Source: Clostridia bacterium
Lineage (GTDB): Bacteria; Bacillota; Clostridia; TANB77; CAG-508
DNA: 64,000 nt
NCBI GenBank assembly: GCA_022792395.1
Contig: JAAWAX010000015.1
Span: 20,093 to 84,092, forward strand
Direction of reading: 5' to 3'
Part shown: positions 52,864-59,910 of the stretch, one piece after another
Layout: each line of letters begins with the position of its first letter
Position numbering within the stretch: position 1 is the stretch's first letter
Program-made: the position numbers and the translations under genes
The notes under the pieces: generated by a model
Told to the model about the DNA's origin: nothing
Database searches by the model: none
Seen by the model: the letters and a program-made list of their open reading frames with translations, nothing else

Positions 52864-52972
52864 GTCGCTAGATTCCCCAGATTCCCCACTGGTTCCGGGT
52901 TTAATTGGGGATATTAATTAAATATCCCCAATTAAACCCGGAACCAGTGGGGAATCTGGGGAATCTAGCGAC
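52864..52972. repeat. Perfect 52-bp inverted repeat (5-nt loop) built from the GC-rich CCCCACTGGTTCCGGGTTTAA-TGGGGA core
   Basis: The left arm 52864-52915 is the exact reverse complement of 52921-52972. It lies between the convergent mazF and HD-GYP genes. Confidence 0.9.
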
Positions 52973-52985
52973 AGATTTCTGTTAA

Positions 52986-53930
52986 TTAGATTTTTAGTTT
53001 TTTTATGATTTTAATTTCTTTGTACAAATTATCAATCATAGCTTTTCTAACTTCATAAGCTTTTTTATATTCTTCGTAGAAAGAAGAATAATTTTCTAGT
53101 GTTTCATCCTTTTTTAATAGCATTTTCATACCTTCTAAATAGTAGTTTTTGTCTTTTTCTTTTTTTGCATTTTCCATTTTTTCTTTATATTTATTAATTT
53201 GTTCAAATCTTTTTAATTCATTTTGTAAGTCATTTACATATTGTTCAGTACAATAAATTTCGTATTCAATATCATCAATAACGACTTTAAATAGTGTTTT
53301 TACAATGATAGGATTGTTTTTTCCATAACGAATGCTTTCATCTGTTTTTTGAAATAGATTGGATTGATTTGCATCTTCTTTTGGTTTAGAATTTTCAATT
53401 AATATTTTTAAAGTGTCGGAAATGCCAATGTGAGATTTATATTGTCTTTTACTAACAATTGCATCGTATTCATCAGCGACACGAATAATTTGACCTTCGT
53501 AAGGAATATCTTTTTTGGTCAAACCCTGTGGATAGCCACTACCATTTAAAGCCTCATGATGATAGTAGGCACCAGCTGAATAAGGTCTTAATTTTAAATC
53601 TTTCATACACAAATTATAGCCTAAAGTAGTATGTGATTTCATAATAGCATATTCTTCTTCGGTTAACTTTCCTGGTTTTTGAAGGACTTCTGGCGGAATG
53701 AATAGTTTTCCAATATCGTGTAAATAGGCACAAATTATACAATATACGGTAAAATCCTTATTACAATGAAGATATTCGCAAAGTCTACAAGTTAGGCTGG
53801 CAACATTTTCACAATGTTTTCGCGTGAACACATCTAAACGGTCTAACATATCTAGTTGGTATCTCATGCTTTCATTTAAATTATATGATTTTAAATTGGT
53901 TTTATCATAAAAATCAAGTTCATAACTCAT
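52986..53930 (-). CDS. HD-GYP domain protein (putative c-di-GMP phosphodiesterase) with coiled-coil C-terminus
   Basis: YLHDIGKLFIP..VL.KPGKLT.EE...K.HT and HHEALNGSGYPQGL motifs. Confidence 0.8.
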   Translation of the reverse strand: MSYELDFYDKTNLKSYNLNESMRYQLDMLDRLDVFTRKHCENVASLTCRLCEYLHCNKDFTVYCIICAYLHDIGKLFIPPEVLQKPGKLTEEEYAIMKSHTTLGYNLCMKDLKLRPYSAGAYYHHEALNGSGYPQGLTKKDIPYEGQIIRVADEYDAIVSKRQYKSHIGISDTLKILIENSKPKEDANQSNLFQKTDESIRYGKNNPIIVKTLFKVVIDDIEYEIYCTEQYVNDLQNELKRFEQINKYKEKMENAKKEKDKNYYLEGMKMLLKKDETLENYSSFYEEYKKAYEVRKAMIDNLYKEIKIIKKLKI

Positions 53931-54060
53931 GATTATTCTCCTTTGTATTTCGTTTTTTATAGGATAGGAAAGGTCAAAATATTTTAATCATGCCTCTTTT
54001 ATTCTTATCATAGCATGAATGAAAAAGAACTGCAAGATTTATTTTGAAAATCCTCCCCAA

Positions 54061-54255
54061 ATTCAAGTTTCGACTTTTTTGCAAGTGAAGGTTATGATAT
54101 ATCATTTTTTTACACTTTGTGTGTCGCAACCCACAAAATTAAATTTTCGTCTGTAGGTTGCTCCAATCGCACTCGCATAGCTCGTTTGGTCGCTTACGCA
54201 GTGTTTCAAAAATGATATATCATAACCTTCACTTGCAAAAAGTCGAAACTTGAAT
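54061..54255. repeat. MITE-like element with about 48-bp terminal inverted repeats
   Basis: attcaagtttcgac(t)5-6gcaagtgaaggttatgatatatcattttt at 54061 is inverted at 54207-54255. The roughly 95-bp core is GC-richer and contains its own hairpin. Confidence 0.7.
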
Positions 54256-54265
54256 CCAAAAACAC

Positions 54266-54295
54266 TTGACAAAACGCGAAAAAATAGTATATAAT
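54266..54295 (+). promoter_or_regulatory. SigA-type promoter for infC-rpmI-rplT
   Basis: TTGACA (54266-71), an 18-nt spacer, then TATAAT (54290-95). Confidence 0.6.
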
Positions 54296-54299
54296 AAAA

Positions 54300-54427
54300 T
54301 ACGTTACAAGAAGAAGTCAAACTTCTCACCTTATCCAAAAGGAAAAAGGTTAGAAACCGAATAAATCCAAAGTATTGTACTTAAGGCTTTATTTTTGATT
54401 TGACTTGTAACAAAGTCAAATTTTTTT
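54300..54427 (+). ncRNA. Candidate L20 leader (ribosomal-protein autoregulatory leader) ending in an attenuator hairpin
   Basis: About 200-nt leader between the promoter and infC. A hairpin tttgac..gtcaaa followed by TTTTTTT lies at 54398-54427. The position matches the Firmicute L20 leader. The 23S-mimic fold was not verified. Confidence 0.45.
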
Positions 54428-54497
54428 ATGGTAAAAGTTTTCAATTAAAGAAATACTTTTTACTGTATAAATGCATGACCAAGTGAAGAAAGAGTTT

Positions 54498-57877: not shown

Positions 57878-57900
57878 CCTATGGGAAAATTGGGGAGATT

Positions 57901-58903
57901 TTAAACTTCTATACTAATGGCATGAGCAATGCCAGGAATTGACTCACCTTGTTGAGAAGTTGTTGAATTCATTAAAGCACCTGTTGCAATCAATAATATT
58001 TTTTTCATTTTGTTTTCTTTTAATTGTTTAAAGAAATAACCAGAAAATACAGTTCCACAACAAGCACAACCGCTACCGCCCAGAGTGTGTATCTTGTGCA
58101 TTTTTATCAAACATAAGAACACCACAATCATTATAATTGGATTTGATATTGTAACCTTGTGCTTTAGCAACATCAATAGCAATATCTTTTCCAACATGAC
58201 CTAAATCACCACTAATAATAGCATCATAATAGCTTGGATTTCTTCCTGTATCTAAAAAGTGAGTGATTAATGTATCAACAAATGCTGGTGCCATAGCAGC
58301 CCCCATGTTATTGGCATCTTTAATTCCCATATCTATAATTTTTCCTGGTGTAATATGTGTAATATAAGGACCTTGTCCATTTTTTGCTAAAAGAGCAGCT
58401 CCTGAACCAGTAACAGTCCATTGACTAGTAGGTGGTCTTTGATTTCCTAATTCTAATGGAAATCTAAATTGTTTTTCGGCACTACAAAAATGGCTTGAAG
58501 TAGCACATAGAACATAATTTGCAAAACTTTCTACTGCGATAGCACCTAAAGTCATAGATTCTACAAAAGTAGAACATGCTCCAAAAACACCAAAGAAAGG
58601 AATACCTAATTCTCGTAAACCAAAACTAGAAGAAATACATTGATTTAACAAATCGCCTGCAAACATACAATCAATTTCATTAGCCGCTACGCCAGATTTT
58701 GAAATAACGGTATTAACAGTTTCTTTAATAATTTTACTTTCTGCTTTTTCCCAAGTTTTTTCACCCCAGAATTCATCTTCTAAAGTTTGGTCAAAATATT
58801 TAGCCAAAGGACCTTGGGCTTCTTTGGGACCAACAATAGAGGCACAATCTAATATGGTTGGTGGAGTATTAAATTTAATCGTTTGTTTTCCTAACTTTTC
58901 CAA
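57901..58903 (-). CDS. spoVAD: Stage V sporulation protein AD; needs a +1 shift at CGG (C at 58078)
   Basis: TTG lies 8 nt after AAGGAG. Thiolase-like fold. ...NAQDTHSG CGG TAG; skipping the C gives GSGCACCGTVFSG...ATGALMNSTTSQQGESIPGIAHAISIEV and restores the conserved GGSGC motif. Confidence 0.8.
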
Positions 58904-58934
58904 AAAATCATCTCCTTACTTTTTCTAGTTTGTC

Positions 58935-58981
58935 CCGCTGGTTTCCCCACTGGTTCCGGGTTTAAATGGGGAAACCAGCGG
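58935..58981. repeat. Core repeat held in the loop of a 14-bp hairpin, in the spoVAC-spoVAD spacer
   Basis: ccgctggtttcccc-actggttccgggtttaaat-ggggaaaccagcgg. Confidence 0.8.
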
Positions 58982-58988
58982 AAACATT

Positions 58989-59453
58989 TTAAACTAAAGT
59001 TATACTTTGTGTATTAAATATCAAAAATATAATTCCTACTAAAATGGATGCAGAAATACCAAATACTAATACTGGACCTGCAACAGTAAACATTTTTCCA
59101 CCAACTCCCATAACATATCCTTCTGATTTATATTCCATAGCAGGGGATACGATTGAATTAGCAAATCCAGTAATTGGAATTAAAGAACCAGCACCTGCAA
59201 ATTTTCCAATTTTATTAAATAAATTAAGACCTGTTAGGAATGCTGAAATTCCAATTAATAAAATGGAAACAATTGTACCAGAGGTTTGTGTATCAAATCC
59301 TCGTTCTTTACATATATTAAGAATAACTTGCCCAATGGTACAAATTAATCCGCCAACCCAAAAAGCATTAAAGCAATTTTTTAAAAGAGGAGAGTTGGGA
59401 GATTTTTTATCAACGTAATCTTGATAAGTTTGTTTTGTTTCTAATGGATTCAT
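58989..59453 (-). CDS. spoVAC: Stage V sporulation protein AC
   Basis: AAGGAGG SD. 154-aa polytopic membrane protein. N-terminus YQDYVDKKSPNSPLLKNCFNAFWVGGLICTIGQ is typical of SpoVAC. Confidence 0.85.
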   Translation of the reverse strand: MNPLETKQTYQDYVDKKSPNSPLLKNCFNAFWVGGLICTIGQVILNICKERGFDTQTSGTIVSILLIGISAFLTGLNLFNKIGKFAGAGSLIPITGFANSIVSPAMEYKSEGYVMGVGGKMFTVAGPVLVFGISASILVGIIFLIFNTQSITLV

Positions 59454-59467
59454 GTAAGTCTACCTCC

Positions 59468-59686
59468 TTAATTTTTATTTCGATTTAAATCGAGAGTGAA
59501 ACTAATATCTAAATCAACAAAATATTCTAAAATTTTGTCGCCATCAATACTTGCTCTTTGATCTAAAATTTTTACTTCTGATAAATAATCAATTGTTTTA
59601 GAAGCTTCTGCTATTGCTTTTACAATAGCATCTTTCCAAGAAACAGTTGAATTACCAGTTATCATTAAATGTTTTTTTATATCCAT
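59468..59686 (-). CDS. Dodecin-family protein
   Basis: 72 aa. ITGNSTVSWKDAIVKAIAEASKTI.....V...........I.EY.V.L.ISF fits the dodecin pattern. Confidence 0.6.
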   Translation of the reverse strand: MDIKKHLMITGNSTVSWKDAIVKAIAEASKTIDYLSEVKILDQRASIDGDKILEYFVDLDISFTLDLNRNKN

Positions 59687-59811
59687 AATCGACCTCCAAA
59701 AATTCTTTTACAAGTAGCATTTCCGAAATTTAGAAAAAATATACAAAACAAGTGGAAATTTTCAGGAAACAATTATATAATTATGAAAAAGCTATCCTTA
59801 CTGCTTCCGAG

Positions 59812-59910
59812 TTTCCGACCGAATTCCCCACTGGTCCCCACTGGTTCCGGGTTTAAATGGGGAAATTTTCCCCATTTAAACCCGGAACCAGTGGGGAATT
59901 CGGTCGGAAA
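59812..59910. repeat. Inverted pair of the GC-rich core repeat (long hairpin) upstream of rsmB
   Basis: tttccgaccgaattccccactgg(tccccactgg)ttccgggtttaaatggggaaa pairs with tttccccatttaaacccggaaccagtggggaattcggtcggaaa. The left arm carries a 10-nt internal duplication. Confidence 0.85.

Follow-up and report, generated by a model that had tools for sequence, protein, structure and literature searches.

What accounts for a GC-rich palindrome that stands in both intercistronic spacers of a spoVA operon and again beside mazF and rsmB? The stretch in question, hereafter the window, is 64,000 nt of a metagenome-assembled genome (MAG) of a Clostridia bacterium (GenBank GCA_022792395.1, contig JAAWAX010000015.1, positions 20,093 to 84,092). 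It carries six copies of a 29-nt unit, TCCCCA-N17-TGGGGA, at four loci: an inverted pair 3′ of mazF, a single copy in each of the two spoVAC-D-E spacers and an inverted pair upstream of rsmB. An earlier reading made from the letters alone (the sequence-only reading) had listed the six copies and likened them to repetitive extragenic palindromic (REP) elements and bacterial interspersed mosaic elements (BIMEs). Here we find that the copies belong to a genome-wide population of hairpins, very probably a REP/REPIN-type family of non-autonomous DNA elements (REPINs being inverted REP doublets) tied to one domesticated, single-copy, vertically inherited HUH/Y1 transposase of the REP-associated tyrosine transposase (RAYT) type with a C-terminal helix-turn-helix (HTH).

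A pattern match tolerating up to three mismatches recovered all six copies at the four places first listed, and none is expected in the window by chance (0 matches in 100 dinucleotide-preserving shuffles). The genome-wide search that the sequence-only reading had proposed then showed that the core is not confined to these loci. The genome, an incomplete MAG of 1.58 Mb in 55 contigs (75.5% complete, 28.7% G+C, indel errors possible; the window is part of contig C34), holds 69 copies of the 29-nt core TCCCCACTGGTTCCGGGTTTAAATGGGGA at 47 loci when up to five mismatches are allowed. About 41 of the 47 loci lie outside long open reading frames (ORFs), although such ORFs, taken from simple long-ORF calls, cover ~86% of the genome. 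Many copies begin 4–50 nt past a stop codon, and, relative to transcription, the units point either way. Along the contigs the loci show moderate clustering (13 neighbouring pairs less than 5 kb apart against 6.6 expected, P about 0.005), which explains why four fall within one 7-kb piece of the window and none in its first 52 kb, an absence noted before that holds even when five mismatches are allowed. Copies also stand at the extreme ends of contigs C10, C32 and C37, indicating that the family breaks the assembly.

A few copies lie within genes. A direct tandem (C4:80618–80680; locus L131 1393–2160) splits the N-terminal domain of the GTPase RsgA in frame and is read as SQENPEPVGKNSPKKPGTSGE, and a single unit (C51:32542–32570; locus L135) adds SPLVPGLIGE in frame at residue 216 of an 1830-aa GH94-family protein. 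Another direct tandem, at C23:89027–89089, has no clear reading frame.

Each unit measures 29–35 nt and is a hairpin with a stem of 6–9 bp, TCCCCA/TGGGGA in this genome, and a conserved 17-nt loop, CTGGTTCCGGGTTTAAA; taken together with their 20-nt flanks, 67 units give the consensus tT-TCCCCACTGGTTCCGGGTTTAAATGGGGA-aAtTT. Eighteen loci are inverted doublets, all of the same tail-to-tail polarity (18/18), with spacers that fall into two classes, 4–5 nt and 13–16 nt, and form palindromic extensions. Four loci are direct tandems; the remainder are single units, several of them with a decayed second arm. Between the two arms of a doublet, 13 variant sites are shared and 10 private, and some of the shared variants are unique to one doublet, in what is a small sample. 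Folded as single-stranded DNA, doublets reach −38.7 and −52.5 kcal/mol (z of −12 and −15). In Rfam the long hairpins matched only models of animal microRNA precursors, below threshold, and these matches were rejected as artefacts of hairpin shape.

The degenerate TGGGGA iterations that had been described in the flanks are real. Within 20 nt outside the unit, a YCCC[CA] stutter of the 5′ stem arm is present in 20 of 67 cases; among random intergenic 20-mers the frequency is 2.5%. The further suggestion that the GGA-rich flanks might bind an RNA-binding protein did not hold up, as the flanks derive from partial duplication of the stem arm of the repeat itself and form no independent motif. These stutters duplicate the first 9–10 nt of the unit (GATTCCCCA, CCCCACTGGT), sometimes three times in succession, for example at window positions 52871–52882 and 59826–59835. 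Repeated rounds of cleavage and rejoining where arm meets loop might have left them as footprints, or they might have arisen by replication slippage.

A look for a RAYT- or IS200-like transposase, also proposed at the outset, turned up a Y1 transposase gene associated with the family. The genome has two Y1_Tnp genes, and both score far better on the NCBIfam REP_Tyr_transpos model, though short of its curated cut-off, than on the IS200 model, which gives 16.5 bits for one gene and no match for the other. The latter, the gene of the family studied here, lies at C8:28689–29321 between dnaB and tilS (Pfam Y1_Tnp 1.4e-10; REP_Tyr_transpos 1.2e-18, 67 bits). A perfect unit is located 5 nt past the dnaB stop codon and 125 nt 5′ of the transposase start; 3′ of the gene, two degenerate inverted units (TCCCCAATTAAACTTAGGAAACCAGTTGGGGA) lie inside tilS (L002:2460–2545). 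The view that this genome's transposase has no right-hand repeat was therefore wrong. The paralog, a second RAYT-like gene (262 aa; C13:19924–20953, locus L001 1295–2324), is bracketed by a different repeat, TGGGACAGGCACAACTTAACCATT, with two direct copies upstream and two inverted copies downstream. That repeat has ~50 copies and is also found at C34:366–424, just outside the window. The genome thus pairs two RAYT-like genes with two repeat families.

The HUH motif (NHAHIL) and the tyrosine motif RDRYK are invariant across the members of the transposase family. An AlphaFold model built from 61 sequences (predicted local distance difference test score 86.9) has a predicted fold that, among PDB entries, best matches the complex of E. 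coli TnpA_REP with a REP hairpin (4ER8; E 6.8e-7), followed by the IS608, ISDra2 and IS200 transposases. The C-terminal ~80 residues are helical in the model (residues 178–254) and give weak matches to Pfam HTH models (HTH_3, Sigma70_r4, HTH_23 and HTH_28), each in 5–13 of the 61 members.

Close orthologs of the gene all sit between dnaB and tilS. Within the genus they are 55–69% identical to the gene of this genome, and orthologs in further MAGs are 51–89% identical to that of the relative G021, an intact 256-aa protein that served as the search reference. In the loci listed, the orthologs are bracketed by the hairpin, with upstream copies on the strand of the gene (+) and downstream copies on the other (−), and two or more copies of the loop motif flank the gene in 16 of the 18 clade members. 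In a tree of 81 RAYT-like proteins the dnaB–tilS genes group together, and the hairpin-flanked genes form a single clade of 18 rows (support 99/88). The tilS reading frame runs through the right-hand hairpins, which fall between the SGGPDS loop and the AHxNH motif (loci L025–L039, L071) and are read as ..NPEP(M/V)(A/G).. peptides; in one species, six tandem 39-nt units encode a 13-residue repeat six times over.

The units that flank these genes show what is conserved and what is free to change. Among 52 distinct flanking units (the alignment omits two more, one degenerate and one with an indel), the loop is conserved across species, with 10 invariant columns. The stem, in contrast, changes wholesale in a compensatory manner, giving the types CCCCA/TGGGG, CACCA/TGGTG, TGCCA/TGGCA, TGGCA/TGCCA and TGTCA/TGACA. 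Two-sided stem changes amount to 85 cells, against 32.9 in shuffles (0 of 500 reach 85) and 9–25 in slid controls. Dispersed copies follow the same pattern: in the relative G065, seven of ten sampled units have GTTGCCA/TGGCAAC on both arms and the other three differ by 1–3 bases; in G084, five of ten sampled units have CGGTCAA/TTGACCG and the rest are off by one to three bases. Dispersed copies that bear the stem of their own species argue that each genome's population is renewed from its own master type.

The hairpins and the gene also occur together. The exact core was present, among 41 relatives, only in this genome and one other species. The loop 12-mer GGTTCCGGGTTT reaches 40–210 copies in 8 of the genus's 121 sampled genomes, against 0–5 in the other 113, and seven of the eight high-copy genomes hold the transposase clade. 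In the eighth, G084, the last ~35 codons of the transposase remain between dnaB and tilS (C74, locus L105 1945–2070), and 61 hairpin copies are kept despite the loss; this is a repeat population orphaned by loss of its gene.

Several observations weigh against a REP/REPIN family served by this transposase. The 67 bits of the dnaB–tilS gene lie under the 80-bit cut-off of the NCBIfam RAYT model, and HMMER searches of the PDB, with the single protein and with a six-sequence profile, gave no transposase match, so the structural link was made by fold search only. In this genome the C-terminal HTH is out of frame from about codon 196 (L002 about 2045–2060), and the hairpins downstream of the gene are degenerate. 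The neighbouring dnaB is split into two ORFs by a single-base break (L002 29–1304), and spoVAD is likewise broken (window 58079). The frame breaks in these three genes are either MAG indel errors or real decay, and the helper gene may be decaying in this genome. A single hairpin is thermodynamically ordinary (z about −1.6, single-stranded DNA fold against shuffles), and its reality as a structure therefore rests on the covariation. Neither GTAG nor CGTC, the tag that defines most published REPs (PMC3733652), is present in the consensus of 67 units with 20-nt flanks. Finally, the eight carrier genomes are relatives of each other and may form one sub-lineage of the genus, in which case the co-occurrence of gene and repeat would not represent eight independent events.

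By analogy with TnpA_REP and the IS200/IS605 TnpA proteins, the enzyme would recognise the hairpin when the DNA is single-stranded, the invariant loop probably setting the specificity. Catalysis and mobilisation would then consist of cutting and rejoining the hairpin, thereby spreading and renewing copies. A more specific proposal, which we put forward tentatively and think rather less likely than not to hold in full, is that the family represents a distinct mode of recognition among REP/RAYT systems. An HTH-bearing Y1 nuclease would read the conserved 17-nt single-stranded loop, leaving a stem that must only pair and is free to drift. Each species would renew its repeats from a master copy, and the enzyme would be locked at its dnaB–tilS address because the right-hand hairpins have joined the frame of the essential tilS gene. 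If this were true, the "subclass 2.1/TIRYT" proteins that the literature describes as lacking REPs would be REP enzymes with a different kind of REP, and the natural stem swaps would be a ready-made map of specificity.

How does the family compare with known systems? As in the REP/RAYT systems, or REPtrons (Nunvar 2010, PMC2817692; Messing 2012, PMC3479197; PDB 4ER8), the repeats are short palindromes, mostly intergenic and often just past stop codons; the HUH/Y1 gene is single-copy and has inverted copies of its repeat on either side; and there is one repeat family per gene, with 4ER8 as the best fold match of the protein. The differences are the missing GTAG/CGTC tag, a large conserved 17-nt loop in place of a conserved foot of a near-perfect palindrome, and a host that is a low-GC member of the Clostridia and not of the Proteobacteria. 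The protein differs from E. coli TnpA_REP in its C-terminal HTH and is too distant from it for sequence search. REPINs (Bertels and Rainey 2011, PMC3116915) share with the doublets the inverted two-unit arrangement with a short spacer and fixed polarity, arms with common variants and "single" units that in many cases have the decayed remains of a second arm behind them; certain loci (mazF 3′, rsmB upstream) are occupied in more than one species. Here, however, the copy number is modest (40–210 per genome), there are two spacer classes and replication as a unit is presumed. The likeness to REP elements first proposed thus stands, with a RAYT-type gene to match. The likeness to BIMEs does not in the strict E. 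coli sense: BIMEs alternate Y and Z REPs across defined linkers that bind IHF or gyrase, whereas here there is one type of unit, and the spacers are palindromic extensions of 4–5 or 13–16 nt.

Related, too, are the terminal inverted repeat-associated tyrosine transposases and their elements (TIRYT/TIRtron; Di Nocera 2013, PMC3733652), which likewise have a longer RAYT-like protein with a C-terminal HTH and flanking inverted repeats able to form moderately abundant families, dimers or clusters. Units of the G021 type contain GGGGACAT or GGGGACG, near the published GGGGWSAS motif, but GGGGACAT-like strings occur in one stem type only, and GGGG is absent from the sister stems TGGCAA, TGACACA, TGCCAA and TTGACCG. 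TIRYTs have been equated with TnpA_Y1 subclass 2.1 by Quentin et al. (2018, PMC6006769), who found no REP-like sequences next to subclass 2.1 genes; Di Nocera et al. described flanking inverted repeats, some in moderately abundant families (PMC3733652). Here, unlike in subclass 2.1 as reported, the flanking repeats are self-folding hairpins with a dispersed population. Set against the published descriptions, the system appears to be a REP/REPIN-RAYT of the HTH-bearing kind, resembling TIRYT and subclass 2.1. The IS200/IS605 transposases (IS608, ISDra2) have the same HUH/Y1 fold and, in their recognition of imperfect hairpins on single-stranded DNA, offer a model of mechanism, but the gene studied here has a fixed dnaB–tilS address and is neither multi-copy nor mobile as a unit.

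Against this background, nothing sets the window's four loci apart from the rest of the family. Pfam identifies the genes around them as MazF, an HD-domain protein, SpoVAE, SpoVAD, SpoVAC, dodecin and an RsgB-type RsmB. The 3′ doublet of mazF (52863–52973, strandless) is REPIN-like and lies between the convergent mazF (PemK/MazF toxin, 52481–52840, +) and HD-domain genes, beginning 23 nt past the mazF stop codon. Its units (52883–52911, +; 52925–52953, −) are embedded in perfect arms at 52863–52915 and 52921–52973 with a 5-nt spacer, so that the perfect hairpin described earlier is present with arms of 53 nt and not 52; GATTCCCCA is repeated once in each outer flank. As RNA the doublet folds to −112.8 kcal/mol (z = −20.9 against shuffles, as for the other RNA folds).

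The two single units of the window occupy the two spacers of the spoVA operon (57411–59453, −; spoVAC 58989–59453, spoVAD 57901–58903, spoVAE 57411–57803, by Pfam). That between spoVAD and spoVAE was located where expected, at 57849–57877 (+), antisense to the spoVA transcript, and is trailed by degenerate TGGGAA/TGGGGA arm fragments to 57900; alone, its RNA folds no better than shuffles (z = −0.37). The unit between spoVAC and spoVAD (58935–58981, +; core 58944–58972) had been described as a copy presented in the loop of a 14-bp hairpin. A hairpin is indeed there, but it is the unit's own 6-bp stem extended by nine further pairs into a 15-bp stem (CCGCTGGTTTCCCCA/TGGGGAAACCAGCGG) around the 17-nt loop, reaching −33.9 kcal/mol as RNA (z = −6.2). 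Within spoVAD, the 1-nt frameshift is an extra C in a run of C near 58079, located against five relatives and extra relative to four of them.

Upstream of rsmB (59949–61307, +; NusB and RsmB/F methyltransferase domains by Pfam), and between it and the dodecin gene, the second inverted doublet (59800–59922, strandless; units 59835–59863, +, and 59869–59897, −) lies 27–150 nt 5′ of the start codon. Both the inverted pair and its 10-nt internal duplication, as reported, were seen; the latter is the stutter CCCCACTGGT, present twice at 59826–59845. The doublet has perfect 31-nt arms (59835–59865 and 59867–59897) around a 1-nt centre, sits within an outer palindrome at 59800–59922 whose 39-nt arms are 90% complementary, and folds as RNA to −97.9 kcal/mol (z = −13.4).

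The same sites were then compared across species, where the spacers are too diverged for base-by-base alignment of insertion boundaries. At the mazF 3′ site the family is present in G021 and G128, and other palindromes are found in G065 and G124; the locus appears to be old and common to sister species. Upstream of rsmB, G124 and G057 have a doublet of their own stem variant (TTGCCA/TGGCAA), and G021 and G128 have an unrelated palindrome. The spoVAC–spoVAD copy is absent from all five relatives aligned, which points to an insertion in this lineage; between spoVAD and spoVAE, relatives have other GC-rich repeats (four of the five) or nothing. Given this turnover between species, the spoVA copies do not count as conserved features of the operon. 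Unrelated GC-rich palindromes, such as the GGGGACGTTTC.. and CAATGGGGACGGTCC.. types, are seen in the spoVAD–E, dodecin–rsmB and mazF 3′ spacers of relatives (L015, L019, L108) and resemble repeats beside other RAYT paralogs of the genus. The variety of palindromes in the same short spacers suggests that these are shared landing or retention sites for several hairpin families.

Could the hairpins instead be primarily cis-regulatory RNA elements of the host, namely stabilisers, processing sites, terminators or protein-binding sites, kept in spoVA to set the ratio of SpoVAC, SpoVAD and SpoVAE? Many copies do lie just past stop codons, and between genes that are co-directional or convergent. In RNA, the doublets and the lengthened spoVAC–D hairpin would be very stable, and a preprint reports that E. 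coli REPs act locally in 3′ untranslated regions (bioRxiv 10.64898/2026.03.23.713779). Single units are co-oriented with their flanking genes in 12 cases against 4, a sample too small to interpret. However, a plain single unit is not very stable, with an energy near that of shuffled sequences; both spoVA copies are antisense to the commoner orientation, and genome-wide both orientations occur. The copies do not overlap the Shine-Dalgarno sequences of spoVAD, spoVAE or rsmB. The operon does not need them, as the relatives without the spoVAC–D copy and with unrelated repeats between spoVAD and spoVAE attest. A regulatory role would also leave unexplained a family that is present in 8 of 121 genomes and tracks the transposase gene rather than a set of target genes, that is found in frame inside tilS, rsgA and the GH94 gene, and whose stem changes wholesale between species around a fixed loop. 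We therefore regard this explanation as very unlikely; effects of the hairpins on expression of spoVA or rsmB are possible and would be by-products.

Two further explanations invoke mobility by other means, or none. With their inverted ends the doublets resemble short elements, and the family's loci are clustered, as might be seen for a classical MITE (miniature inverted-repeat transposable element), an internally deleted insertion sequence (IS) mobilised in trans by a DDE or other transposase through its terminal inverted repeats and near a Y1 gene by coincidence. Yet neither a target-site duplication around units or doublets nor a conserved terminal sequence beyond the hairpin was found. The unit is just ~29–35 nt, without the IS-derived terminal repeats of a MITE, and it commonly stands singly or in direct tandem. 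Across species, the Y1 gene is the one gene that units bracket consistently, with covarying stems, and no IS with matching ends turned up, which together leave a MITE extremely improbable. Alternatively, the system might be fully domesticated, the copies being kept by selection, not selfish spread, for example as DNA-structuring, replication- or repair-linked binding sites for an HTH nuclease beside dnaB. In keeping with this, the dnaB–tilS address of the gene is fixed across the whole clade, each repeat family has a single such gene, the essential tilS accommodates the right-hand hairpins within its reading frame, and RAYTs have been argued to behave like housekeeping genes (PMC5581495). Full domestication nonetheless seems very unlikely to us, given a gene deleted in G084 and possibly broken in this genome, a genus in which most species are without the family, and no positional logic beyond intergenic and 3′-end placement.

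The REP/REPIN-type reading places such a system in a setting where little has been described. REP/REPIN-RAYT systems are known almost entirely from Proteobacteria, with Clostridia, among the papers retrieved, mentioned only in passing, by Bertels et al. as Group 1 hosts (PMC5581495), and our full-text literature searches found no paper describing such a system in Clostridia. For the HTH-bearing subclass, reported without REPs (PMC6006769), this lineage of gut Clostridia provides a clean case with dispersed hairpins, and the compensatory stem changes around a fixed loop supply a direct hypothesis for substrate recognition. On the practical side, the repeats end several contigs of this MAG, add in-frame peptides to TilS, RsgA and a GH94 enzyme, and put hairpins of high stability within or beside operons, spoVA and rsmB among them, all of which is relevant to annotation and expression studies of uncultured gut bacteria.

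The window also contains inverted repeats outside the studied family. A perfect 34-nt inverted repeat with a 98-nt centre lies at 54076–54109 and 54208–54241, and a palindrome with 36-nt arms lies just after spoVAE at 57313–57389. A block ..TATTATAGGAAGTT.. with its own palindrome at 51593–51773 has a 37-nt, 97% identical copy at 53969–54005 (region 53953–54005). Finally, positions 54302–54434 (+) match the ribosomal protein L20 leader (RF00558) with 44.6 bits against a gathering score of 58.7; the match is directly 5′ of ORFs of the sizes of infC, rpmI and rplT (54471–55707) and is probably real.

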